Shown here in pieces: positions 2,937 through 17,735 of a DNA stretch of 64,000 nt. Within the stretch, counting starts at the first letter, position 1; every line of letters starts with the position of its first letter. The stretch comes from an uncultured Actinomycetes bacterium. Lineage in GTDB: Bacteria; Actinomycetota; UBA4738; HRBIN12. A program made the position numbers and the translations under genes. Where the stretch lies: NCBI GenBank assembly GCA_963794065.1, contig CAWCDA010000042.1, positions 143,861-207,860 of the forward strand, read 5' to 3'. The notes under the pieces were generated by a model. The model ran no database searches. It had not been told where the DNA came from and was given only the letters and a program-made list of their open reading frames with translations.

Positions 2937-4368
2937 ATGCACGCAAACCTGATCGCGGGCGACTGGGTCGAGGCCCCCGCCGCCGTCGAGGATCGCAATC
3001 CCTCCGATCTATCCGACGTGATCGGTGAGTACGCGTCGGCCGACGCCGCGCAGACCGACGCCGCGATCGATGCCGCCGTCGCGGCGGCGCCGGGCTGGGC
3101 CGCGGCGACACCGCAGGAACGGAGCGCGGCGCTTGGAGACCGTCGGGCTCGAGCTCGCCGCGAGGGCCGAGGAGCTCGGGGAGCAACTCTCTCGGGAGGA
3201 AGGGAAGCCGCGGGCCGAGGGGATCGGGGAGGTGCAACGCGCGTCCCAGATCTTCCGGTTCTTCGCGGGCGAGGCGCTCCGCGTGCCGGGCGAGCACGTC
3301 CGCAGCGTGCGCCCGGGCGTCGACGTCGACATCCTGCGCGAGCCGCTCGGGGTGGTCGGCATCATCACGCCGTGGAACTTCCCGATCGCGATCCCGGCGT
3401 GGAAGATCGCACCTGCGCTGGCGTACGGGTGCACGGTCGTGTGCAAGCCCGCCGAACTGGTCCCCGCAAGCGCGTGGTCCCTGGCCGAGATCATCTCGCG
3501 CTCCGGCGCGCCCGAGGGCGTGTGCAACCTGGTGATCGGGCCGGGCCGGGTGGTCGGCGAGCGGCTGGTGCACGATCCGCGCGTGCGCGGCGTCACGTTC
3601 ACCGGCTCTCAGGCTGTCGGCGCCGGCGTCGCGACGGGGCTGGCCGCGCGGTTCGGTCGCGCCCAGCTCGAGATGGGCGGCAAGAATCCGCTCGTGATCC
3701 TCGACGACGCCGACCTCGACGTCGCGGTGGACTGCGCGATCCAGGGGGCGTTCTATCAGACCGGACAGCGGTGCACGGCGAGCAGCCGGCTGATCGCGAC
3801 GTCGGGCATCCACGATCGCTTCGTGGAGGCGACCGTCGAGCGCATGCGCGCGCTCCAGGTGGGTCACGCCCTCGCGCCGGGCACGCAGATCGGTCCGGTG
3901 GTCTCGGCCGACCAGCTCGCGCAGGATGAGGACTACCTCGCGGTGGGGGCCGAGGAGGGCGCCGAGCTCGCGTTCGGCGGGCGGCGACTCGAGCGCGATA
4001 CCGAGGGCTATTACCTGGAGCCCGCGCTGCTCGTCGAGACGCGCAACGACATGCGTGTGAATCGCGAGGAGATCTTCGGGCCGATCGCGACCGTCGTGCG
4101 CGCCGAGGATCCCGAGCACGCCCTCGCGCTCGCCAACGACACCGAGTTCGGATTGTCGGCCGGCGTGTGCACGACCTCGTTGCGGCACGCCGCACGCTTC
4201 CGCGACGCCTTGCAGGCCGGGATCGTGACGGTCAACCTGCCGACCGCGGGGGTGGACTACCACGTGCCGTTCGGCGGCACGAAGGGGTCCTCGAGCGGCA
4301 CGCGGGAGCAGGGCCGCTACGCGGTCGAGTTCTTCACGACGGTCAAGACGGCCTACGTGCGGCCGTGA
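2937..4368 (+). CDS. NAD(P)-dependent aldehyde dehydrogenase with an apparent 1-nt frameshift near 3133-3136
   Basis: The N-terminus in the 2937 frame reads MHANLIAGDWVEAP...PQERSAAL. The rest lies in ORF 3025..4368: LETVGLELAARAEEL..., ITPWNFP, ELGGKNP-like LEMGGKNP, QRCTASSRL (catalytic Cys), EEIFGP. The two parts join if one base is removed at CTTGG, 3132-3136. Confidence 0.8.
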
Positions 4369-4380
4369 GTGCCTGGGACG

Positions 4381-4410
4381 TTGACCCCGTCCGCAAGCCC
4401 CGGGTAGCCT
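4381..4410 (+). promoter_or_regulatory. putative sigma70-type promoter of the redox operon
   Basis: TTGACC (4381-4386), an 18-nt spacer, then TAGCCT (4405-4410), 10 nt upstream of the GTG start at 4421. This fits a short-leader or leaderless transcript. Sequence pattern only. Confidence 0.3.
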
Positions 4411-4420
4411 GCGGCGCGTC

Positions 4421-5071
4421 GTGACCGTCGACGCCCTCGCGCCCGTCGTCTTCCTCGCCGCAGCCCTCCTCGTGCTCGCCGGTGTGGTCAAGGTGGTCCG
4501 CCCGCGCGCGACCGCGCAGGCGCTCCTGGATGCGGGATTGCCGGGGTCACGCGCGGTCGCGCGCGGGATCGGGGCCGTGGAGATCGCCACGGGTGTCTGG
4601 GCGGTCGCGGCGCCGGCCGCAGGGGGCGCGCTCGCGCTCGGGGTCGTGTACCTATCGTTCGCGGGTTTCCTGGGCTACGTGTTGGGCGTGCATCCCGAGG
4701 CCGGGTCGTGCGGGTGCGCCGGCCCGACCCCCGTGCCACCGAGCCGCCTCCATCTCGTGCTGAACGTCCTCGCGGGCGTGGCGGGTCTGGCGTATGCGAC
4801 GACCATGGCGCCATCCCTCGGCGCATGGGTCGGGACGTTGGACTGGGCCGCCGCGCCGATCGTGGCCGGGCTCGCGCTCGCCGGGTGGCTCGCGGTAGTG
4901 GCGGTCACCGAGGCGCCGGCCGCGTTCCGTTCTTGGGAGCGCCCGACGCACGATCACGACGCGGAACCGCATGGCCATGATCACGCCGTCGCGGACCACG
5001 AGCTTGCGACCGCCGGCATCGGCCCCGGGCACCCGAGCCTGTGGCCGGGCACGAAGCCGGAGCCCGAGTGA
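4421..5071 (+). CDS. MauE/DoxX-family redox-associated membrane protein with a His/Asp-rich C-terminal tail
   Basis: ORF 4421..5071 has four or more hydrophobic helices, a conserved-looking SCGCAG segment, and the tail THDHDAEPHGHDHAVADHE. The family call comes from memory of the MauE architecture plus the MauD-like and MauA-like neighbours. Confidence 0.6.
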   Translation: MTVDALAPVVFLAAALLVLAGVVKVVRPRATAQALLDAGLPGSRAVARGIGAVEIATGVWAVAAPAAGGALALGVVYLSFAGFLGYVLGVHPEAGSCGCAGPTPVPPSRLHLVLNVLAGVAGLAYATTMAPSLGAWVGTLDWAAAPIVAGLALAGWLAVVAVTEAPAAFRSWERPTHDHDAEPHGHDHAVADHELATAGIGPGHPSLWPGTKPEPE

Positions 5072-5640
5072 GCGCGGTTCTCGACCTGGCGACGCGCGCC
5101 GTCTCGCCACGCGCGACGCGCCGCGGCAGGGTCGCCGAGGCCGCCAGCGCCCTCGCGGTCGCGCCGATCCGGTTCGCGACGCGACCGGTTTCGGCGGATG
5201 CCGTCGTGCGGAAGAGCTGCGCGAGCTGTCCGGGGGGCAGCCGCTGCTGTGGCTCCTACACCGCGTTCTGCTGCACGCTGCCCGGTGGCGACAACTTCGG
5301 ATGCCCGCCGAACACGTTCGTCGGCGGTTGGTGGCAGTGCAACTACGGCGGCACGAACCTCTGCAGCACGACGAACATGCGCTACTACCTGGATTGCTCG
5401 ATCAACCCGGGCGCGTCCTGCCCCGGCGGGTGCCACTGCGGCAACGACGACTGCACGAACTTCAAGACCTGTTGCGTCGTATTCCGCTACGGACAGTGCA
5501 ACACGGACATCCCGTACGTGACGCCGATCCAATGCCGCTTGATCACGTGCGTGATCCCGTGTCGGATCGACTGCCTAGACTGCGACTGCTCCTCGGCCGT
5601 CGATCAGCACACGTGCCTGCACGAGGCGGGATGTCTGTGA
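5068..5640 (+). CDS. secreted cysteine-rich protein (25 Cys) resembling the methylamine dehydrogenase light chain (MauA)
   Basis: Start at GTG 5068, overlapping the upstream stop (GTGA). The N-terminus RATRRGRVAEAASALAVAP is signal-like. The mature part CCTLPGGDNFGCPPNTFVGGWWQCNY...YYLDCS resembles, from memory, MauA CDCSGGSLTNCPPGT...ASWVASCYNP...YRDCC. Confidence 0.55.
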   Translation: MSAVLDLATRAVSPRATRRGRVAEAASALAVAPIRFATRPVSADAVVRKSCASCPGGSRCCGSYTAFCCTLPGGDNFGCPPNTFVGGWWQCNYGGTNLCSTTNMRYYLDCSINPGASCPGGCHCGNDDCTNFKTCCVVFRYGQCNTDIPYVTPIQCRLITCVIPCRIDCLDCDCSSAVDQHTCLHEAGCL

Positions 5641-6290
5641 GCGTCGGCGCCCTGACCGCGCTGGTGATCGTGGAGACGATCGTGCTCGCGCTGCTCGCCG
5701 TCGTGGTCGTATCGCTCTTGCGGAGTCACGCCGAGCTGTTGCGGCGCCTTCCCGCACCCGATGACGAGCAGGAACATCACGCGCACGGCGCGGCCGTGCC
5801 GATCGAACGGACGCCGACGCTGTCCGCCTCCATTCCGGCTCCGAAGCGACAGGCATCCGAGGCGCATGACGTGGTCGGCACGACGCTCGGCGGCGACCAG
5901 GTGGTCGTCTCGGCCGCGTCCGGCAGCGACACGTTGTTCGCCTTCCTGTCGACGGGGTGCCTGACGTGTCAGACGTTCTGGGATGGACTGCGTCCGGGCG
6001 TCCGGCGACCGATGCCGGGAGACGCGCGGGTGATCGTCGTGGTCAAGGACCCGGCGTTCGAGTCGCCGTCGAAACTCGCGACGCTCGCGCCTCCCGACGT
6101 GCCCGTGATCCAGTCATCGCAGGCGTGGGAGGACTTCGGCGTCCAGATGTCGCCGTATTTCTGTTTCGTCGACGGACGCTCGGGCTCGGTCCGGTCGGAG
6201 GGCGCGGCGATGAGCTGGGAGCAGGTGTCGTCGCTGCTGACTGACGCGTTGTTTGACGAAGCGGCCGCGCGCGCCAAGGGGAGCGGATGA
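5631..6290 (+). CDS. membrane-anchored thioredoxin-fold protein (MauD/TlpA-like), CxxC = CLTC
   Basis: Internal Met 221 of ORF 4971..6290 starts MSVSVGALTALVIVETIVLALLAVVVVSLL (TM anchor). It continues ...LFAFLSTGCLTCQTFW...MSPYFCFVDGRSGSV. It overlaps the upstream stop by 10 nt. Confidence 0.75.
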   Translation: MSVSVGALTALVIVETIVLALLAVVVVSLLRSHAELLRRLPAPDDEQEHHAHGAAVPIERTPTLSASIPAPKRQASEAHDVVGTTLGGDQVVVSAASGSDTLFAFLSTGCLTCQTFWDGLRPGVRRPMPGDARVIVVVKDPAFESPSKLATLAPPDVPVIQSSQAWEDFGVQMSPYFCFVDGRSGSVRSEGAAMSWEQVSSLLTDALFDEAAARAKGSG

Positions 6291-6961
6291 GTCCGGTCGT
6301 CGCCGTGGGGCTCGGGGTCGCGATCGTGGCCGGCCTCCGATCGACCTGGTCCCCGTGAGGCGTGTCGATGCTGGGGAGCATCACTCCGCTCGGGGAGCGG
6401 AGCCGCGGATCGAGGTGGTGGGTGACCGCGACGGCCTACCTCGTCGGGTCATCGGTCGGCGGCGCGCTGTTCGGCGGGATCGTGGCAGCGATCGGGGTGG
6501 CGATCGGCGTCGCGGGCTGGGCGACGAGCGCGCGGCTCGCGACGATCGCGCTCGCCTTGGTGATCGGTCTCGCGCTCGACCTCGGCGTCGGCGGTCTCCG
6601 ACTGCCGAGCGTCCGCCGACAGGTCGACGAGGAGTGGCGCGGCCGCTACCGCGGCTGGGTCTGGGGGCTCGCGTTCGGGTTCCAGCTGGCCCTCGGTGTG
6701 GTCACGATCGTGACGACGTCGACCGTCTACGTCACGTGGCTGGCGGCGTTGCTGAGCGGATCGGTGGCGGGAGGAATCGCGATCGGCGCCCTGTTCGGGT
6801 TCGCACGGGCCGTGCCCGTGTTTGCGGTCGCGGGCGTGCACACCCCGCGACAGTTGCTCGGGGTGGATACGACGCTGCGGCGCTGGGCCCGCCCCGCGCG
6901 ATCGGCCGCGTACGCGGCGGCGGGCGCGCTCGCAGGGGTCGCCGCGGCGGTGGCGCGATGA
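6287..6961 (+). CDS. polytopic membrane protein with an in-frame TGA at 6356-6358 (candidate Sec or Cys position in an xSP[C/U] motif)
   Basis: ATG 6287 overlaps the upstream TGA (ATGA). There are 23 codons, MSPVVAVGLGVAIVAGLRSTWSP, then TGA, then the same frame continues as ORF 6362..6961 (about 6 TM segments, no Cys). If the TGA is a true stop, the CDS is 6362..6961. Confidence 0.5.
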
Positions 6962-7410
6962 CGCAGCTGCGTGGCCACGGGCTCGCCTTGACCGTGCGCC
7001 GGGGATGGGAGGCACGGATCTGGCTGCCCGATGCGCCGCCGCCCGCGGAGAACCGTCCGGTGATGCGCCTCGCGAACTTCGCGCTGCCGTCCACGAAGGA
7101 CACGTACGCCGAGAACGTCGCCGACGAGCTTCGGCGGGGGCAGGTCGTCGCATCGCTGGTGGAGTTCGCGCCGCGGCTCGCCGATCGCGGGCTCTACGCG
7201 CCGCAGGGCGTGCCCGCGTTCGACCTTGAAGATCTCGATCCGCGCGCGGTGCAGCGTCACCTGCCGGGACGATCGGGGCTGCAGCGGTTCTTCTCCGTGC
7301 GCGGGCGTGCGTTCAGTCTGTACGTGATCGCCCGCGACGGCGACGGCTTGCGCGCCACGTTGCGGGAGCTCCATACGCAGCTGCTCGCCCTGGTGGTGGA
7401 GCCTGCGTGA
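6958..7410 (+). CDS. hypothetical protein within the redox operon
   Basis: ATG 6958 overlaps the upstream stop (ATGA). The C-terminal 150 aa of ORF 6253..7410, MTQLRGHGLALTVRRGWEARIWLPD..., has ordinary amino-acid composition. I recognise no family. Confidence 0.5.
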   Translation: MTQLRGHGLALTVRRGWEARIWLPDAPPPAENRPVMRLANFALPSTKDTYAENVADELRRGQVVASLVEFAPRLADRGLYAPQGVPAFDLEDLDPRAVQRHLPGRSGLQRFFSVRGRAFSLYVIARDGDGLRATLRELHTQLLALVVEPA

Positions 7411-8003
7411 GCGCGGCCGGCTGGATCGTGGCGGCGGTGCTCGGCGCTGCGCTCGTGTGGCTCGGTCTCGCGTTGTCGGGCGCGGTGCGAGAGCTCGCCA
7501 CGCTTCGGGAACGGGTCGACGCGCTCGAAGGAGTCGTCGCCCCGATCCATCTCGATGGGGGGCTCCCGATCGGCAGCGCCGAACCGGCCTGGTCGCTGAC
7601 CGCACCCGACGGGGCCGTGGTGCCGTCGTCGCTGCTCGAGGGCAGGCGACACCTCGTGCTGTTCGCGGACGCCGAGTGTCGCGCGTGTGACGAGGTCGTG
7701 CCCGATGTGGTCCGGGCGGCCGCGGCAGGCACGCTGCCCCCACTCGCCCTGGTCGGCCGCGGCCGCCCGGACGCGACGCCCGCGGCCTGGCGCGCCGACG
7801 ACCGTGCGCGCGTGGTGGCCGGCGTCGAGCGGGACCGCGACGTGAGCGACGCGTTTCGCGTCGAGGTGAGCCCGCACGTGTTCGTGATCGACGAGGGCGA
7901 CGCGGTGGTGGCCCAGGGCAGCGCCGCGACGCTCGCCGACGTCGAGGCGCTCGTGCGTGGCGCACAGGGCATCCGCATCGTTCCGGGAGCCACCGGTGGC
8001 TGA
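7407..8003 (+). CDS. membrane-anchored thioredoxin-fold protein, MauD-like, CxxC = CRAC
   Basis: ORF 7407..8003 starts at a GTG overlapping the upstream TGA. It has a TM anchor, then RELATLRERV, GLPIGSAEPAWSL, LVLFADAECRAC and VSPHVFVIDEGDAVV. This matches the MauD layout recalled from Paracoccus MauD. Confidence 0.7.
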   Translation: MSAAGWIVAAVLGAALVWLGLALSGAVRELATLRERVDALEGVVAPIHLDGGLPIGSAEPAWSLTAPDGAVVPSSLLEGRRHLVLFADAECRACDEVVPDVVRAAAAGTLPPLALVGRGRPDATPAAWRADDRARVVAGVERDRDVSDAFRVEVSPHVFVIDEGDAVVAQGSAATLADVEALVRGAQGIRIVPGATGG

Positions 8004-8262
8004 CCCGATCACGCGCCGCGGTTTCGTCACGAGGGCGACCGGCCTTGCGCTCGCGAGCGTAGGGGTTGCCGCCGGGCTCGGCCGCGACCGGGCGTTCGCC
8101 CATGTGAAGCCGTCGCCGTGCCGGGTGCGTTGCGAGCCGATCAGCCGAACCGGCTGTCTGTGCGGCGGCAACCTCTACCGCTGCTCCGGGTGCGGGGATA
8201 CCTTCCACGCGTGCATCGACCGGGACCGGTTCGGCTGGTTCTGTCTTCGTCGGGCGTGCTAG
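7996..8262 (+). CDS. small Tat-signal cysteine-rich secreted protein (10 Cys in about 53 mature residues)
   Basis: GTG 7996, in the frame of ORF 7957..8262, gives VADPITRRGFVTRATGLALASVGVAAGLGRDRAFA (twin-arginine signal). The mature part is HVKPSPCRVRCEPISRTGCLCGGNLYRCSGCGDTFHACIDRDRFGWFCLRRAC. Confidence 0.6.
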   Translation: MADPITRRGFVTRATGLALASVGVAAGLGRDRAFAHVKPSPCRVRCEPISRTGCLCGGNLYRCSGCGDTFHACIDRDRFGWFCLRRAC

Positions 8263-8263
8263 C

Positions 8264-9572
8264 TCAGATCGAGGAGCGCAGCCACACCGCGTAGTTGCTG
8301 AACGAGGGCTGGTACCGATCGAACGCGACCCGCCGCCTCGAGCCGGTGAGCGCGAGCGACGGTTCGTCGTTGGTACGGAACCTGCCGCGCGTCGCGTCGG
8401 TAAGACGCGCCGGCGCATGCCACGTCGTGCCGCCGTCGGGGGACTCGACGTACAGGATGTCGATACGAGCGCCCGCGGCGAACGGATCGCAGGCGTGCTT
8501 GGCGAGCGTGTTCCGACGGCAGCCCGCAGCGGCGACAGCGATGCCAGTGGACTCGAGCGGCAGTACCGCCGGCCCGTAGCCGTCGTCGAACCGGGTTCCG
8601 GCGATCGTGGTCTGCCACGTGAACACGGTCGACGGCGCGCCGAGCGTGACCCCGTCGAAGGTGCGCACCTCGAGGCTCGTAGCGGTGGAGTAGGCGATCG
8701 CCACGCGCGGGTCGGCCGGGTCGGCGGCGCCGCCGACGGCGGGGTAGTGCTGCCGATCGTTCGGGCTGCGGCCCGTCAGTTGGATCGGTGTCGCGCCGAT
8801 GAGATCGTCTCCCCCGACCGACGACGTCAACGCCCGTTGGATGCCCGTGTCGGTGGCGATCCACGCGATCGCCACGTCGGCGCCGCTGACGCCGATGTCG
8901 GGCAGCCCCGCATAGCCTTCGCCGGCGCCGAAGGGTTTCGACGTCGTCTGCCCGATCGTGGCCTTCGTCCAGCGCCGACCGCCGTTGTCGCTGTGGGCGA
9001 TGCGGATCCCGCCGTTGTCCGCCGAGGTCCACACCGCGAACAACCGACCCTCACCGATCGCGACACGCGGATAGTCGACGCGGCCGTTGGTCGGGGACAG
9101 ACGCTTGCGCGCCGACCATGTCTTCCCCTGGTTGCGGCTGACGCGTATCCACAACACCCTCGGCGCGCCCGCGGCGGTATCGGCCGTAGCTGCGCTGGGT
9201 CACCCAGCTCGCGATGACCGTGTTGCCGTCGGCGGCGATCGATACGCGTTCCGCGTGGGTCGAGGTGGGACTCAGCCGCCGCGGCTTGCTCCACGACGGG
9301 GGATCCGCTCCTGCAGGGGAACGCTGCACGAACACGCCCATGTGCGGTCCATCGTCGCTCGCGCACTTCTCGGACGGCGGCGGGCAGTCGCTCGCCCAGA
9401 TCGACAGCAGCTTCGAGCCCGTGGCGGCGAGCGACTTACCGGGGTTCCAGGCATAGGCGGCCGAGGCGCGGTGCGGAGCGCCGAACGTCGCCGCGAGCGA
9501 GGGCGCCGTCGTCGCCAACGCCGCCGTCACCACGGAGCCGACGACGAGCAGGCGCAGACCCCGGCGTGTCAT
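8264..9572 (-). CDS. secreted BNR-repeat (sialidase-like / exo-alpha-sialidase fold) protein with an apparent frameshift near 9160-9190
   Basis: The N-terminus from Met50 of ORF 9051..9719 is MTRRGLRLLVVGSVVTAALATTAPSLA (signal peptide). The body is ORF 8264..9157, with SxDxGxTW-type BNR motifs SRNQGKTW, SDNGGRRW and SPDGGTTW. Confidence 0.7.
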
Positions 9573-9607
9573 GGCTCGGCATCGTACCCGGGGTAGCATC
9601 CCCGCAG

Positions 9608-9690
9608 GCCCGGGTGCCGGAACGGTAGACGGAGGCGCCTTAAAAGCGCTCGCTCGAAAGAGCGTGTGGGTTCGACTCCCACCCCGGGCA
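9608..9690 (+). tRNA. tRNA-Leu (anticodon UAA), 83 nt, no encoded CCA
   Basis: Manual cloverleaf. The acceptor stem GCCCGGG pairs with CCCGGGC. The anticodon stem is GGCGC/GCGCT with loop CTTAAAA. There is a long variable arm CGCTCGAAAGAGCG. The T arm is GTGGG-TTCGACT-CCCAC and the discriminator is A. Confidence 0.9.
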
Positions 9691-9761
9691 CGGAACACGT
9701 ACGCGGGTCGGCACCGCAAGGGTTGAGCCAGGCTCCCGTCGTTCCTCGGTAGGCTGGCGCC

Positions 9762-10722: not shown

Positions 10723-12966
10723 ATGGGAGGAACACCTGCCCGTATCCAGCGGGTCAGTGCCCTCGTCGCGATCGGAGCCGTCGCGTGCGCGATGGCGCTC
10801 GCGTTCGGGCGGATCCTGCAGGGACGGACGCCGACATACCGGCTGCTGTGCGTTGGGCTCCTCTCCGGCGTTGTCGCTTGGGCGGCCGAGCGCCGGGGGA
10901 TGCTGCTCGCCACGCTTCTCAGCGCGATCGGCCTCCTGCTCGTGCTCGGCTGGGTCGTCGCGCCGCGCACACTGTGGCTCGGACTGCCGACGGTTGAAAC
11001 GGTGCGCACCTTCGGCCCGCTCGCCACGCAGATCGGTGCGCAGGCGCGCGAGTACGTGTCCCCCGCCCCGGCGACACCGGCATTGCTGCTTGCGGGTGCG
11101 ATCGCGGTCTGGGCGGCGATCTTCTCGTGCTACGCACTGGCCTTCCGCGCGCAGAGTCCGCTCCTGGCGCTCGTCCCGCCGCTCGCGTTGGTGGTGTTCG
11201 CCGACGGGGTCTTGGACCAGTTCTCCCGGCCGGTGTACGGCATCGGTTTCCTGGTCGCCGCCCTCGCCGTGCTGTTCGCGGACTCGGTGCGACGGCTGCG
11301 ATCGTGGGGGCCCGTGTGGGGACAGGCCGGGGACGCGCGCGATCGGCTCTGGCCGGTGACCGGGCGGAACGCGCGACGTGTCGGGCTCACGGTGCTCGCG
11401 GTTGCGGTGGTCGTCCCGTGGGCCGTGCCCGGGTTCGGCGGCAGCGCGGGTCTCGGTCTCTTCTCCGTCGGCGGCGGCGGCGGTGGGATCGGGGTGAGCC
11501 CGTTCGCCTCGATCGGCGCGGTGCTCAACGATCCGTCGAGCTCGACCACGCCCGTGTTCTCGATCCGGGCGACGCGTGGTTCGTACTGGCGGATGCTGGC
11601 TCTCGACCAGTTCGACGGCACGACGTGGGGGGCCACCCCCAGCGAAGGGGCATCGATCCCACCCGGTGGTGTCATCCCCAGCCTTGCACCGGGTGGACAC
11701 GAGCTCACGCAGCACGTGACGGTCGAGGGCGATTTCACCTCCCCGTGGCTCGTCGCGGCGGCGGAGCCGACCTCGATCCACGTCCACGGGAGCGTCAGCT
11801 GGCACCCCGCGTCCTCGTCGGTACAGGTCGACCCGTGGCCCGATCCCGGCGACGGCTACGTCGTCACATCCGCGCAGGAGCTGCCGACCGATGACGACCT
11901 TCGGAGCCTAGACATCATCCCCCCGAATCCGGCACTGAGTGTGCTGCCGCCCGGCATCCCATCGGCGGTGGCCGACACCGCGCACGCATGGACGGACGGC
12001 CAGCCGACGACGTTCGACGAAGTCATGTCGATCGAGCGACACCTGCGCAGCTCGCCCTTCTACTACGATCCGACGGCGTCATACCCCAACGATCCCCAGA
12101 GCTTTGCGGACGTCTTGACCACGCACGCCGGGTTCTGTCAGCACTTCGCGAGCTTGATGGCGGTGATGCTTCGCGAGCTCGACATCCCGGCGAGGGTCGG
12201 CTACGGATTCACCCCTGGGACGCACGTCGGAGATACCTGGACCGTGATGCTGTCGAACCTGCACACCTGGGTGGAGGTGTTATTCCCCGGCTATGGCTGG
12301 CTGACGTTCGAACCCACGCCTGGTGGTGGTTTCGGCGACCCCTCGGCAGCCTCATACGACCACATCGCCACAGGTCCTGGCCCGGGGGACACCTGCAAGA
12401 AACCGGGCGGATGCGGCCCCGGGGGTGGGAGTGTCACGCCGACCCCGCCCCCGATTGAGACTCCGACTCCCACCCAGTCCGTGTCTGTGAACGGCGGGGA
12501 GGACGAGACGGGATCCGGCTCGCAGGCTCCCGGCCCTGGGTCTCGATCCGGCGGCGGGATCCGTTCGGCGCTCGGCGTGGCGATCCTCCTCGTTGCCATC
12601 GCGATCGGCATCCCGCTCCTTCGTCAGGCGCGCCGCGATCGCCGCCTTCGCGGCGCACGTGACCCGCGGAGCTCGATCTTGGTCACATACGAGATCTTCG
12701 CGGAACGAGCCGGAGCACTCGGCTGGCGTCGAAAACCGCACGAGACCGTCGATGAGTTCCGCCGCCGCCTCGCGGGGCGAGTGTTGGGGAGCGATCGCGA
12801 TCCCGCGATGGATGTCCTCGCCGCCACCGTGGTGAAGGCGGCCTACGGGCGACGCGCGCCCGACAGCGACGACGCGCTTGTGGTGGCGGCCAGCGCCTCC
12901 TCGGTATTGGCGCGGCTTCGCGACGCGACGTCGTGGCCTCGACGCCTCCTCGGCGCGTACCGCTGA
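10723..12966 (+). CDS. transglutaminase-family membrane protein (TgpA-like: DUF3488 N-domain, transglutaminase core, C-terminal TM/DUF4129-like)
   Basis: Intact 747-aa ORF with multiple N-terminal TM helices. The core motif is GFCQHFASLMAVMLRELDIPARVGYGF...HTWVEVLFPGYGWLTFEPTP (Cys-His-Asp core). Confidence 0.85.
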   Translation: MGGTPARIQRVSALVAIGAVACAMALAFGRILQGRTPTYRLLCVGLLSGVVAWAAERRGMLLATLLSAIGLLLVLGWVVAPRTLWLGLPTVETVRTFGPLATQIGAQAREYVSPAPATPALLLAGAIAVWAAIFSCYALAFRAQSPLLALVPPLALVVFADGVLDQFSRPVYGIGFLVAALAVLFADSVRRLRSWGPVWGQAGDARDRLWPVTGRNARRVGLTVLAVAVVVPWAVPGFGGSAGLGLFSVGGGGGGIGVSPFASIGAVLNDPSSSTTPVFSIRATRGSYWRMLALDQFDGTTWGATPSEGASIPPGGVIPSLAPGGHELTQHVTVEGDFTSPWLVAAAEPTSIHVHGSVSWHPASSSVQVDPWPDPGDGYVVTSAQELPTDDDLRSLDIIPPNPALSVLPPGIPSAVADTAHAWTDGQPTTFDEVMSIERHLRSSPFYYDPTASYPNDPQSFADVLTTHAGFCQHFASLMAVMLRELDIPARVGYGFTPGTHVGDTWTVMLSNLHTWVEVLFPGYGWLTFEPTPGGGFGDPSAASYDHIATGPGPGDTCKKPGGCGPGGGSVTPTPPPIETPTPTQSVSVNGGEDETGSGSQAPGPGSRSGGGIRSALGVAILLVAIAIGIPLLRQARRDRRLRGARDPRSSILVTYEIFAERAGALGWRRKPHETVDEFRRRLAGRVLGSDRDPAMDVLAATVVKAAYGRRAPDSDDALVVAASASSVLARLRDATSWPRRLLGAYR

Positions 12967-13540: not shown

Positions 13541-15066
13541 ATGAGGCGAACGTTCCGCAGATGTATCGGCTCGTCCGTCGTCGTCATGCTCGTGACGGCC
13601 ACCACGGCGCTGGTCATGGCCGCTCCGGCCGCAGCGACCGACTCCTACGATCCCGCGGCCGACGTCAACTCGATGAGCCGCACCACCGCCTACACCGGCG
13701 TCACGGACTGGTGGGACGCGGGCTTGACCGGCGCTGGCGTCGACGTCGCCGTGATCGACACGGGCGTGATGCCGGTCGACGGTCTCGCGACGCCCGGCAA
13801 GATCGTCTACGGGCCCGACCTCTCGCTCGACTCGCAGGACTCGGAGCTGCGCAACCTCGATGCGAACGGGCACGGAACGTTCATGGCCGGCATCATCGCC
13901 GGCAACGGGGATTCGTTCCTCGGTGTCGCGCCGGACGCCAGGATCGTGAGCGTCAAGGTGGGCACCGCCAACGGCAGCGTCGACGTGTCGCAGGTGATCG
14001 CGGCGATCGACTGGGTCGTGCAACACCGCCAGGACAACGGACTGAACATCCGGGTGCTCAACCTGTCGTACGGGACGGACTCCACGCAGCCCTACACGGT
14101 TGACCCGCTGGCCTTCGCGGTCGAGCAGGCATGGAAGGCGGGCATCTTCGTGGTGGCCGCTACGGGCAACGAGGGCTACGTGTTCAAGACGGGCACGCTG
14201 ACCAACCCTGCCTTCGATCCGAAGATCTTCGCCGTCGGCGCATCCGATTCGATGGGCACAGCCAAGATGGGCGACGACACGGTCGCTCCGTTCTCTTCGA
14301 CCGGGAGCAACGCCCGCTACGTCGACGTCGTGGCGCCCGGCGCGCACGTCGTCAGCCTGCGGGTGCCGGGCTCCTACATCGATCAGGCGTACGGATCGAC
14401 CGGGTACGTCAGCGACACGCTGTTCCGCGGCAGTGGCACGAGCGAGGCGGCCGCCTTCACGTCGGGCGAGGCGGCACTCGCGATCCAGCAGCGTCCCGGG
14501 ATCACTCCCGACAAGCTGAAGAAGCTGTTCCTGAGCAACACGCGCTCGCTCACCGGCTTCTCCTCGATCCAACAGGGTCAGGGCTTGGTCGACATGTCGG
14601 CGATGCTGAACGCCCGCGCCTGTAACGCCCCGAAGCAGTGGAACACGATCGACTGGTCGACCGGGACGGGCTCGCTCGAGCTCTCCCGGGGCACCGAACA
14701 CCTGACGGACGGTGGCCTGCCACTCATCGGTGAGTTCGACATCTTCGGTCACGGGTTCGACTCGCGGCAGATGGCGGCCGCGGAAGCTGCACAGTCGTCG
14801 TGGGTTGAGGGCGATTGGAACGGCAGCACGTGGTCGCGGCAGCACCTGGAGTGGCAACACGTGGTCCGGGAGCACGTGGTCCGGGCAGCACCTGGAGTGG
14901 CAACACGTGGTCCGGCAGCACGTGGTCCGGCAACACCTGGAGCGGCAACACGTGGTCCGGCAGCACGTGGTCCGGCAACACTTGGAGTGGCAACACGTGG
15001 TCGGGCAACACCTGGAGCGGCAACAGTTGGTCGGGCGACTCCTGGCTGGGCGCGACCTGGCGCTGA
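13541..15066 (+). CDS. secreted S8 subtilisin-family serine protease with a C-terminal Trp-rich pentapeptide-repeat tail; two apparent +1 insertions inside the repeat
   Basis: Signal peptide [32 protein letters not shown]. Catalytic triad contexts VAVIDTGV (Asp), [13 protein letters not shown] (His) and [11 protein letters not shown] (Ser). The tail is read across frames 2, then 0, then 1 (extra C at 14837, extra G in GGG at 14883-14885). It ends at TGA 15064-15066. Confidence 0.8.
14822..15060 (+). repeat. 15-nt tandem coding repeat, 16 units, encoding G-(N/S)-T-W-S
   Basis: Units GGCAGCACGTGGTCG / GGCAACACCTGGAGC and similar, read directly from the sequence. Peptides: [80 protein letters not shown]. 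Confidence 0.9.
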
Positions 15067-15092
15067 TCGCGATCCGACGTACAGGCGGAAGG

Positions 15093-17735
15093 ATGCAGAT
15101 GGGATCCGTGGTCTCGACGAGGGAGCGACGAGCATCGATCCTCGGCTCGGGGGTCGTGCGCGTCTGGTGCTTCATCGCCGTCATCGCGCTCGCATCCGCG
15201 GGGGTCTGGGCGTTCAACCTGTCGCACTTCGGCACGCTGAGCACACCGGGCGCGAACGCCCTTCCCTGGCCGCTGCTCGCCGTCGTCTTCTACCTCGCGG
15301 AGACCTACGTCGTGCACCTGCAGTTCCGCAAGCAGGCCCACACGCTCTCGGCCTCCGAGATCGGTCTGACCGTCGGCCTGTTCTTCGTCTCGCCGATCGG
15401 TCTGCTCGTGGCCCAACTGGTCGGCACGGGCATCGCGATCGTCGTGCATCGGCGGCAGAAGGCGATCAAGCTCTGGTTCAACCTGGCCGAGGTCTCGCTC
15501 GCCTGCGGTCTCGGGCTGCTGGTGTTCCGGTCCTCGTCGACGGAGGGAGCATGGGTCCCCAGGCGTGGGCGGCCGCCCTGCTCGCGGCCGGCGGTCGCGC
15601 ACACGTGCGGCGTGCTCTTGGTGACGGCCGTGATCGCGGTGGCGGAGGGGCGTCTGGTCGCACCGCAGCTGCCGCGCACGCTGGCCGTGTCGTTGGTCGG
15701 GGCGCTGTCGGCCTGCTGTCTCGGTCTCCTCGTGGTCGAGCTGGTCGTGAAGGATCCGCCTGCGCTGCTGTTGGTGGCGCTCCCGTTGCTCGCGTGCGGG
15801 GTGTCGTTCCGTGCGTACATGATGCAGCGCGAGCAACGGGAGCGTGTCGAGTTCCTGTACGAGTCGATGCGCGCGACGCAGGGCGCGCCCGAGTTCGGGC
15901 TTGCGGTCGGCGAGCTGTTGGTCGCGGCGCGCCGGCTCCTCCGCGCGGAGTACGCGGAGATCCTCCTGCTGTCGCCGATCGCCGGCGAGCCGGCGCTGCG
16001 CAGCACCAGCGGGCCGGAGGGGGAGGTCCTGATGCGGCGGGAGAGCCTGACGCGCGGCGACGACCTCGCGCTCGAGGTGGCGTCCGGCGCCTCGCGCCCG
16101 GTGTTGTTGCCGCGGCGTCGCGCTCCACACCCGCTCGACAGGCTGCTCACGTCGCGCGGCCTCGAGGACGCGATCGTTTGCACGCTGAACGATGAGGATC
16201 GGGTGTTCGGCCTGCTGCTCGTCGGCGACCGGGTCGGGGACGTCAGCACGTTCGCCGATGAAGACCTCGGCCTCTGCGAGACGTTCGCGGGCCATGCGAG
16301 CGTGCTGCTGGAGAACGGTCGTCTCGAGCGTTCGCTCGCCCAGGTGACCGAGCTCACCGAAGAGCTGCACCACCAGGCCTATACCGACGCGTTGACCCAA
16401 CTCCCGAACCGGTTGCTGTTCGCGGAGCGCCTGGGCGAGACGCTCGAAGGCGGCGATCGGCGCACGCACGCGGTGCTGTTCCTCGATCTCGACCGGTTCA
16501 AGGTCGTGAACGACAGCTGGGGGCATGCCGCCGGCGACGACCTCCTCGTGCAGGTCGCGCAGCGGATCCAGGGCGCCGTCCGCCCACAGGACACGCCCGC
16601 CCGCCTGGGCGGCGACGAGTTCGCCGTCCTCATGCGCGACACGGATGCCGCCGGCGCGATCCACGCGACCGAGCGCCTGATCGATCTCATCAACGCCCCG
16701 ATCTCGTTGTCTTCCGGCCACCAGGCGACGGTGCACGCGAGCGTCGGCGTCGCCGTCACCGGCCCCGACGCCTCGACCCCCGAGGAGTTGCTTCGCAACG
16801 CCGACCTCGCGATGTACACGGCAAAGACCGAGGAGCGCCCCTACGCGCTCTTCGAGCCCGCCTTGCACCACCGCATCCGCGATCGCCGATCGCTCGCCCT
16901 GGAGCTCGAGCAGGCCGCGGAACGGGGCGAGTTCGTCGCCTACTACCAGCCGGTGGTCTCGCTGGTCGATGGCACGATCCAGGCGTTCGAGGCGCTCGCT
17001 CGCTGGCAGCACCCCGAGCGAGGGCTGCTCGAGCCGGCCGAGTTCCTGAGCGTGGCGGAGGAGACCGGATTGATCTTCGAGGTCGGCGCCAGCGTGCGGT
17101 CGCAGGCGCTGCGGTCCGCGGGCCGCTGGCCCGACGCACACGCCGAAGCCGGGAACCTCGGCCTCTGGCTCAACGTCGCCCCCGGTGAGCTCACCGACGA
17201 TCGTCTGGTTGAAGACCTGGCGCTCGCGATGACGCGCTCCCATGTCGACGCCCGACGCGTCACGGTTGAGATCACGGAGTCGACCGTCATCCGGGACGAG
17301 TCCGGCGCCTTGCGCGCGATGCATCGGCTGCGCGACCTGGGATTGCAGCTGTCGATCGATGACTTCGGCACCGGCTACTCGTCGCTGTCGCGTCTCGCGG
17401 AGTTCCCGATCGAGCTCCTGAAGATCCCGAAGCCGTTCGTCGACCGCCTTGTCGGCCCCGATGCCGACCAGACGTTCGTCGATGCCATCCTGCGGCTCGC
17501 GGGATCGCTCGGTCTCGTCTCGACGAGCGAGGGCGTCGAGCACGTCGGTCAGGCGCGCGCGTTGCGCGATCTCGGATGCGGGCTCGCGCAGGGATTCCTG
17601 TTCGCTGAACCGATGACCGGCGAGAGCGTGTTCCGTCTCCTGCGGAGCAGCGCAGCGCATCGGGGAGCGCCCACGCTTCCCGCCGCGCGCTCGTTCGCGC
17701 GGTCCTACGAGCCGTCCGCCGTCGCGTCGTCCTAG
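15093..17735 (+). CDS. membrane-bound GAF-like / GGDEF / EAL protein (c-di-GMP synthesis and hydrolysis)
   Basis: ATG 15093 ([11 protein letters not shown]) lies in the frame of ORF 14712..17735 and is preceded by AGGCGGAAGG. It has about 8 TM helices, an intact GGDEF (RLGGDEFAV) and EAL motifs ([20 protein letters not shown]). Confidence 0.85.

Follow-up and report, generated by a model that had tools for sequence, protein, structure and literature searches.

The mau cluster of Paracoccus denitrificans and Methylobacterium extorquens (mauFBEDACJGMN) is the closest described counterpart of the operon analysed here, which consists of seven genes (g1 to g7) of an uncultured Actinomycetes bacterium (GenBank assembly GCA_963794065.1). 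The operon lies in a stretch of 64,000 nucleotides (nt) of contig CAWCDA010000042.1 (positions 143,861 to 207,860 of the forward strand), which is referred to below as the window and has a G+C content of about 71%. Genetic studies of the mau genes in the 1990s reportedly found MauF to be required for the formation of methylamine dehydrogenase (MADH), and no biochemical role of MauF was described in the literature that we found. CcdA and DsbD (Pfam models DsbD and DsbD_2) use two Cys residues, located in transmembrane (TM) segments 1 and 4, and the first TM segment of CcdA carries an SPC motif. A further relevant system is the MauE disulfide pathway (Gonzalez et al., bioRxiv 10.64898/2026.03.05.709764): MauE proteins have a CXC active site in the TM3-TM4 loop, replace DsbB (complementation of E. 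coli dsbB, for which the CXC is needed), probably reduce quinone, and were proposed to be generalist disulfide formers that are mostly found without MauA.

The operon in the window is a real and widely conserved actinobacterial module. Three things about it are new: a mau-type system without the dehydrogenase genes, a probable selenocysteine (Sec) form of MauF, and a family of Cys-rich proteins related to MauA. From sequence comparison, the operon would be a client-dedicated mau-type module for extracytoplasmic oxidative folding or maturation, encoded together with its clients; we give this reading a probability of roughly 0.7. The original prediction, made by a model from the letters of the window, had described one translationally coupled operon that encodes MauE, two MauD-like thioredoxins and Cys-rich exported proteins, and this description held. 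Seven open reading frames (ORFs) on the + strand span 4421-8262, and their features are as follows (aa, amino acids; SECIS, selenocysteine insertion sequence):

4421..5071 (+): g1, MauE-like membrane protein of 216 aa with about five hydrophobic segments (PF07291 match)
5068..5640 (+): g2, predicted client of 190 aa with 25 Cys and a long RR-containing leader (family alignment; HHalign against the MauA family)
5631..6290 (+): g3, MauD-like thioredoxin-fold protein of 219 aa with an N-terminal membrane anchor (BLASTP against MauD)
6287..6961 (+): g4, polytopic MauF homologue, 224 codons with an in-frame UGA read through (BLASTP against MauF)
6356..6358 (+): UGA codon of g4, putative selenocysteine, motif STWSP-U-G in the first hydrophobic segment
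6367..6401 (+): candidate bacterial SECIS element with two hairpins (RNAalifold consensus)
6958..7410 (+): g5, protein of 150 aa that lacks Cys, TM segments and a signal peptide (conserved wherever a locus has enough DNA)
7407..8003 (+): g6, second thioredoxin-fold protein with a membrane anchor, 198 aa (TIGR02661; BLASTP against MauD)
7996..8262 (+): g7, mini-protein of 88 aa with a twin-arginine motif and 9 Cys (Cys count; conserved pattern in 37 loci)

The operon shares with the mau cluster MauE (PF07291), MauD-like thioredoxins, MauF (34% identity, WSP-C/U-G), a Cys-rich protein that resembles the light chain and whose long RR leader is homologous, and the placement of accessory genes on both sides of the client gene. 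Unlike the mau cluster, it has no MauB, MauG, MauJ or MauM/N, and cupredoxin genes are near only 5 of 84 loci; its predicted client fails PF02975 and is without the second Trp of tryptophan tryptophylquinone (TTQ); its MauF has a putative Sec in place of Cys; and a conserved 150-aa protein, g5, is added. The host is also of the high-GC Gram-positive type, and among the client's relatives there are fusions to cell-wall-binding modules.

All six gene junctions overlap exactly as had been predicted: GTGA at 5068-5071, the ATG at 5631 against the stop at 5640 (10 nt), ATGA at 6287-6290, ATGA at 6958-6961, GTGA at 7407-7410, and the GTG at 7996 against the stop at 8003 (8 nt). The start of the operon had been placed at 4381, where a TTG lies out of frame and runs into a stop; this position was rejected as the start of g1, which is 4421-5071. 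No CxxCH motif was present in any product of the operon ORFs, as had been stated, and the count of 25 Cys in g2 was correct, whereas the mini-protein g7 has 9 Cys and not 10. The Pfam and NCBIfam searches that had been proposed as a check placed g1 in the MauE family above the cut-off, but no Pfam or NCBIfam family was matched by g2 (PF02975 included), g5 or g7. A scan of the window against Rfam gave no match.

The g4 gene is an ORF only when the in-frame TGA at 6356-6358 (WSP*G) is read through. Its product is 34% identical to P. denitrificans MauF over 207 aa (BLASTP, E 3e-13), and STWSP-UGA-G of g4 aligns with STWSPCG of MauF, with Cys79 of MauF opposite the TGA; the sequence around the motif in MauF of the P. 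denitrificans mau cluster is GGLLSTWSPCGYSS. No Pfam or NCBIfam model for MauF matched g4 or P. denitrificans MauF; with C in place of the TGA, g4 scored 24.5 bits against PF13386 (DsbD_2), just under the cut-off of 24.9. The product of g4 has 0 Cys, which makes the recoded position its sole redox-capable residue, and P. denitrificans MauF has a single conserved Cys. With one redox-capable residue, a two-Cys relay of the CcdA/DsbD type is excluded for g4. The original prediction had flagged the TGA in this polytopic protein, but missed both its MauF identity and the selenocysteine reading.

The TGA was present at this site in 84 of 84 actinobacterial sequences, and also in a rearranged locus (L086) and in Thermomicrobium roseum (L085), which gives 86 of 86 sequences from two phyla; no Cys codon was seen at the site in the actinobacterial clade, and the Cys-containing homologue at the Sec position is P. 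denitrificans MauF, a single example. Gene callers start g4 about 75 nt past the end of g3 in all homologous loci. When translated, the gap between g3 and g4 gives a conserved hydrophobic segment, WSP and the TGA, followed by G-x-S-M-L-x-S-I-T-P-L-G-E-R. Entropy by codon position was 0.70/0.45/1.22 over the 15 codons before the TGA and 0.84/0.73/1.12 downstream, a coding pattern on both sides, and an in-frame start at least 20 codons upstream of the TGA was found in 82 of 83 loci. Since the TGA is conserved and the variation upstream is of the coding type, an explanation by frameshift or pseudogene was rejected. TGA is the ordinary stop of g1-g6, and a genome-wide reassignment of TGA was rejected on this ground.

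Two 6-bp hairpins begin 8 and 26 nt after the UGA: H1 (GAUGCU-GGGG-AGCAUC, 6367-6382) and H2 (UCCGCU-CGGGG-AGCGGA, 6385-6401). In the RNAalifold consensus of 41 distinct sequences, 99% of the cells were paired; 0 of 500 shuffles reached the observed values, and slid registers were 39-59% paired. Compensatory changes affect three pairs in H2, some at the cost of amino-acid changes (P-L-G-E-R to W-L-G-E-S), and the minimum free energy of the hairpin window is -26.4 kcal/mol (z -1.8). In a related metagenome-assembled genome (MAG) of the Solirubrobacterales (L069, 4483-8552), a block of selD (- strand), selA, selB and tRNA-Sec(tca) lies directly upstream of the operon and ends about 880 nt before the MauE-like gene; a plasmid of a cultured member of the Thermoleophilia carries an annotated selA. 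We read the g4 TGA as selenocysteine, the signs usually sought in silico for a bacterial selenoprotein being present apart from Sec machinery within the 64-kb window itself, and regard g4 as a probable new selenoprotein form of MauF. The 2026 selenoproteome review (PMC13188914) and the BSepDB and deep-Sep papers mention neither MauF nor methylamine nor CcdA when searched by keyword, and no paper was found that links MauF, CcdA or Thermoleophilia with selenocysteine.

Among described proteins, g4 resembles the bacterial thiol-oxidoreductase selenoproteins (DsbA-like, DsbG-like, peroxiredoxin/thioredoxin-like, and TsoB rhodanese/DsbD fusion-like) in having Sec in place of a redox Cys, a hairpin in the coding region after the UGA, and Cys homologues. 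It differs from them in that the Sec lies in a predicted TM segment and stands alone, with no UxxC or CxxU motif. With CcdA/DsbD it shares a polytopic layout, an SPC-like redox-type residue in the first TM segment and an extracytoplasmic thioredoxin-fold partner, whereas g4 and MauF have one Sec or Cys and the PF13386 score of g4 stays just below the cut-off. A parallel outside the Actinomycetota is on a megaplasmid of T. roseum DSM 5159 (NC_011961, about 474-490 kb; L085), where a MauF-like gene with an in-frame TGA (LWSP*GYSM) occurs in a cluster that also encodes a redoxin and a MauE fusion. That cluster belongs to a different phylum, and its clients, unlike g2, are bona fide PF02975 light-chain-like proteins. 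The T. roseum MauF-like gene (L085 10681-11349) is annotated only from 10756, past its TGA. A second MauA-like ORF (L085 about 7850-8330) stands beside the MauE fusion and is unannotated in the PLSDB table, which describes itself as incomplete; three neighbouring 'hypothetical' proteins of 400-456 aa have no Pfam match.

Relatives of g2 were counted by a scan of one genome per species and were encoded in 277 species genomes. The best 80 of these genomes, all MAGs of uncultured Actinomycetota (Thermoleophilia, Gaiellales or Solirubrobacterales), together with three loci obtained earlier, made up the set of 83 loci that was compared; one of them (L004) is 98% identical to the window. The gene-neighbourhood survey that the original prediction had called for found g1 to g5 syntenic: the order g1-g2-g3-g4-g5 was kept wherever the DNA sufficed, down to 45% identity of g2, and g3 was found in all loci. 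In contrast, g6 and g7 co-occur and are limited to a closer subclade. The accessory logic had been described as duplicated, and g6 and g7 are indeed present, but they are an add-on of this subclade to a conserved core of g1-g5.

More than 220 database relatives of the g2 product were found, every one labelled 'hypothetical', and an exhaustive profile search gave 499 clusters at 50% identity for the g2 family. With 277 species genomes and 499 such clusters carrying the g2 family, the arrangement is not rare; the family was not found among PLSDB plasmids. Many of its proteins are 400-740 aa long, with the g2 domain followed by other modules. Among 101 long members, 33 carry LGFP, 7 CWB2 (CW_binding_2), 3 SLH and 5 FG-GAP modules, a few carry DUF4214 or lectin modules, and 3 are MauE-g2 fusions. 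Frequent fusion to cell-wall-binding modules suggests that the client acts at the cell surface. At a locus with a g2-LGFP-CWB2 fusion (L086), the order is another one (MauE, thioredoxin, MauF-like, g5-like, g2 fusion), and since the same five components recur in a different order, the set appears to be a functional unit. A TatA/B/E gene (L086 3551-3868) lies about 1.5 kb upstream of the MauE-like gene at that locus.

The g2 product has three invariant motifs, GWW.C (nt 5323-5340), RYYxDC (5380-5397) and FRYGQCN (5482-5502), and the only invariant Trp residues of the family are the adjacent W88 and W89. PF02975 matched neither g2 nor any of 35 family members, even at E<=10, in a search in which the positive controls scored 180 bits (P. 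denitrificans MauA) and 36 bits (T. roseum MauA-like protein). When the g2 family was aligned by HHalign with the family of full-length MauA precursors, the probability was 96.5% (E 8e-10, 121 columns); the leader alone gave 94% (E 1e-7) and the mature core alone 31% (E 5e-4), which places most of the MauA signal in the leader (D..E.lsR..A..tSRR aligned with l.r...l.RR.SRR). The link appeared only with an alignment of full-length precursors, and a single mature MauA sequence gave 1%. In the core, g2 shares CPPxT with MauA, W89 aligns with TTQ Trp57, and D109 of RYYLDC stands opposite Asp76 of AYRDCC, which we take to be the catalytic base of the MADH light chain. No residue of g2 corresponds to the second TTQ Trp (Trp108), and the C-terminal half of g2 does not align with MauA. 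A sequence-profile search of the Protein Data Bank (PDB) with the g2 family gave a chance match alone (7arc_R, E 0.24). The AlphaFold2 (AF2) model of g2 had a predicted local distance difference test (pLDDT) score of 52 and its Foldseek search against the PDB was empty, a result that says nothing on the fold because the model is poor.

In our reading, g2 is probably a remote MauA relative and not a PF02975 member, and the MauE, MauD-like and MauF neighbours give independent support to this relationship. The label 'MauA-like' of the original prediction is thus retained as remote homology, but it rests mostly on the leader. The odd Cys numbers of g2 (25) and g7 (9) mean that at least one Cys in each stays outside intramolecular disulfides; these unpaired Cys may be free, intermolecular or cross-linked.

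The g1 product matched PF07291 with 47.5 bits (cut-off 27; profile positions 9-124 of 128), and its CGC motif at aa 97-99 (nt 4709-4717) lies between hydrophobic segments 3 (70-88) and 4 (110-128). Its family, the position of the CGC in the segment 3-4 loop and the adjoining thioredoxin-fold partner agree with the MauE pathway (bioRxiv 10.64898/2026.03.05.709764), and g1 is well supported as a MauE-family CXC membrane protein and predicted oxidase. There are also differences: the published pathway is a generalist DsbB replacement, with no mention of MauF or selenium, whereas MauE is here locked to a specific client and to a putative Sec-MauF; and the residue after the CXC is Ala in g1 (CGCAG) where Phe is usual.

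Two TM-anchored, MauD-like thioredoxins had been predicted, and both were confirmed by their anchors, their CLTC and CRAC motifs and their matches to P. denitrificans MauD. In g3, CLTC is at aa 110-113 (nt 5958-5969) and the one hydrophobic segment at aa 11-29; the BLASTP match to MauD has E 2e-6, Thioredoxin_2 matches weakly, and TIGR02661 does not match. In g6, CRAC is at aa 91-94 (nt 7677-7688), behind one N-terminal hydrophobic segment, and TIGR02661 (MauD) gave 33.4 bits, below the equivalog threshold of 188.6; BLASTP against MauD gave E 3e-8 over 184 aa. By these matches g6 is the more MauD-like of the two thioredoxin-fold proteins. The AF2 model of g5 (pLDDT 92) is an alpha/beta sandwich whose best Foldseek match in the PDB was EagT6 (E 4e-3, template modelling score 0.3, non-significant), with Mog1/PsbP/DcrB-like folds also found; as a guess from this model, g5 might be a cytoplasmic chaperone of the g2 precursor. 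In g7, the twin-arginine motif TRRGF is at nt 8011-8025 (TAT_signal_seq below the cut-off), and the mature part of about 50 aa holds the 9 Cys. The pattern CRVRCEP..GCxCGGxLYRCxGCG..FHAC..FCLRRxC is conserved in the 37 loci, and no relation of g7 to MauA or g2 was found.

Searches by tblastn with the P. denitrificans proteins found no MauB, MauG, MauJ, MauM or MauN in the 64-kb window or within 10 kb on either side of 84 loci. The absence of MauB and MauG, claimed earlier for the window, was thus borne out, and the finding named at the time as pointing to an ordinary amine dehydrogenase cluster, a MauB/MauG pair just outside a syntenic block elsewhere, was not made within the same distance of those loci. 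Since neither MauB (PF06433) nor MauG is near, a conventional amine dehydrogenase cluster was rejected. The original prediction had also seen no beta-propeller; this is right for MauB, but a gene for a secreted propeller-like protein abuts the operon:

8264..~9575 (-): BNR/Asp-box beta-propeller-like secreted protein of about 435 aa, candidate partner of the operon (BNR_2/BNR matches below the Pfam cut-offs)

This gene ends 1 nt past g7, and its start near 9575 was estimated from the Met of the signal peptide. Compared with the intact copy in the 98%-related locus L004, it is broken by a 1-nt insertion near 9160 in a G/C run; the resulting ORFs (8264-9157 and 9051-9719, - strand) would reflect an assembly error or a recent pseudogene. 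A BNR-like propeller adjoins the operon in 32 of the 38 loci with g6 and g7, downstream of it in convergent orientation or upstream of it in divergent orientation, with identities as low as 41%, and it is a candidate partner of the operon. The corresponding neighbour in the other subclade is a PD40/TolB-like propeller (about 22 of 38 loci); other loci have neither.

An aldehyde dehydrogenase gene (window 3025-4368, +; PF00171, 475 bits) ends 52 nt before g1 and may be co-transcribed with it; only about 14 loci, the closest ones, share this linkage. Genes for amicyanin-like cupredoxins were found at a distance of 2-6 kb in 5 of the 84 loci (about 16816-17082 in L003, about 16574-16840 in L068, and about 7150-7425 in L044, L046 and L048), three of which have no BNR-like propeller neighbour.

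The proposed course of events is as follows. The g2 product would be made with its long twin-arginine leader and may be kept in the cytoplasm by g5 before it is exported. On the outer side of the membrane, the many disulfides of g2 would be introduced or shuffled by g3, which g1 would re-oxidise, with electron transfer to a membrane quinone. A second and fast station of thiol/selenol exchange would be provided by g4, a CcdA/DsbD_2-like protein whose selenol is buried in its first TM segment; the most likely task of this station would be to deliver reducing equivalents for isomerisation or to resolve mixed disulfides. In this subclade, g6 and g7 would be an added pair of thioredoxin and client. 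Several points weigh against this scheme. The pairing of thioredoxins with clients and the direction of electron flow are guesses, and the fold match behind the proposed chaperone role of g5 is non-significant; a transporter role of g4 is equally compatible with its fold family. Taken by itself, mature g2 resembles MauA only weakly (31%, E 5e-4), and PF02975, the PDB sequence-profile search and Foldseek with the poor model all failed to show the similarity. Helix 1 of the candidate SECIS is almost invariant, which coding constraint could partly explain, and Sec machinery was not found in the 64-kb window but seen in one related MAG (L069). The private oxidative-folding system of the original prediction is on the whole partly supported: it fits the strict synteny, the MauE-g2 fusions and the DsbB-like character of MauE.

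Two of the other explanations concern g4. Its TGA might genuinely terminate translation, or result from a pseudogene lesion or a sequencing error, with the real product starting at GTG 6362: gene callers and RefSeq annotate a downstream start in every locus, T. roseum included, and at least one probable indel error is present close by in the window. This is very improbable given a TGA kept in 86 of 86 sequences of two phyla, the coding-type conservation and available start upstream, the Cys of Paracoccus MauF in the same column, the conserved structure downstream and the sel genes that adjoin the operon in L069. That g4 is a transporter for small solutes or for metal or chalcogen species (LysE/DsbD_2 superfamily), with the Sec or Cys as a pore ligand, would agree with its sole family match, the borderline one to DsbD_2, a model which we take to belong to the transporter-rich Pfam clan CL0292. 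It would also agree with a single Sec that has no partner Cys, and with the lack of a defined MauF function in the literature found. We nevertheless consider it rather unlikely, since MauE, a thioredoxin and a Cys-rich client are constant neighbours of g4, whose first-TM motif resembles the SPC of CcdA. An exchange of Sec for Cys, moreover, is typical of redox-active sites (PMC13188914).

The other two concern the operon as a whole. A general housekeeping disulfide-bond system (the MauE pathway) that stands beside Cys-rich genes by chance would suit a Gram-positive-like host, which needs some pathway of oxidative folding, and would suit the proposal that MauE is a generalist mostly found without MauA; yet in all 83 loci g2 stands in one row with g1, g3, g4 and g5, the set is kept when the gene order changes, MauE-g2 fusion proteins exist and the junctions are translationally coupled, all of which makes this reading improbable. 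The main rival holds that g2 is the cofactor-bearing catalytic subunit of a new oxidoreductase with a protein-derived quinone (like TTQ or cysteine tryptophylquinone, CTQ), that an adjacent or cis-encoded propeller takes the role of MauB, and that the operon is a cofactor-biogenesis cluster. It would add to the folding reading and not replace it. The alignment of W89 with Trp57 and of D109 with Asp76 points this way, and GWW, RYY.D and FRYGQ.N, invariant or nearly so across hundreds of clusters, include non-Cys residues whose invariance suggests an active site. The odd Cys counts leave one Cys unpaired in g2 and g7, propeller genes are adjacent in 32 of 38 and about 22 of 38 loci although the sides change, and some g2-family members carry FG-GAP or lectin-like propeller repeats in cis. 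Also on this side are the aldehyde dehydrogenase gene directly upstream here and in the closest loci and the cupredoxin genes near five loci; these and the propeller neighbours are leads for a quinoprotein, not evidence. On the other hand, Trp108 has no equivalent and the C-terminal half of g2 does not align; no MauG, LodB/QhpG-type flavoprotein or radical-SAM gene occurs in any locus; the two propeller families differ by subclade, lie on the other strand and are missing from many loci; and the aldehyde dehydrogenase linkage, limited as it is to close relatives, may be inherited synteny. We hold the quinoprotein as a tentative possibility. In its full form, also doubtful, proteins of the g2 family would form a new class of enzymes, exposed at the surface and equipped with a protein-derived quinone or other cross-linked Trp cofactor, of shared stock with the MADH light chain; unrelated propellers (BNR-like, TolB-like, or fused FG-GAP/lectin) would replace MauB, and maturation would proceed without MauG by a MauE-MauD-MauF relay that needs Sec. 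If this were true, MauF would be the long-missing redox catalyst of light-chain maturation.

For the preferred reading, a client-dedicated folding or maturation module, the consequences are several. An obligatory exchange of Cys for Sec at the one conserved Cys of MauF, in two phyla, would mark that residue as a redox catalyst, and the role of MauF becomes a testable question. A probable new selenoprotein family, with its Sec in a predicted TM segment, would be added to the bacterial list, and current gene calling truncates g4 in every genome examined. Here the newly recognised MauE pathway is packaged as a constant set of five genes, dedicated client included, in Actinomycetota that are abundant in soil. 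The g2 product defines a large family of Cys-rich surface domains related to MauA (499 clusters at 50% identity), and the invariant Trp-Trp, Asp and Arg-Tyr motifs of these domains are a reason to look for a new cofactor or activity.

Further genes were noted downstream of the operon in the window. A tRNA-Leu(taa) gene (9608-9691) lies a little outside the BNR-like gene, past its probable start, and the overlap between the two is limited to a spurious 5' extension of the ORF. A long ORF at 13541-16195 (+) has a subtilisin-like N-terminal half, and its C-terminal part is a low-complexity Arg/Ala/Gly-rich repeat that may indicate a frame problem. The gene at 10723-12966 (+) encodes a TgpA-type transglutaminase-like membrane protein (TgpA_N, Transglut_core, DUF4129), and a tRNA-Ser(cga) gene is at 16955-17046.

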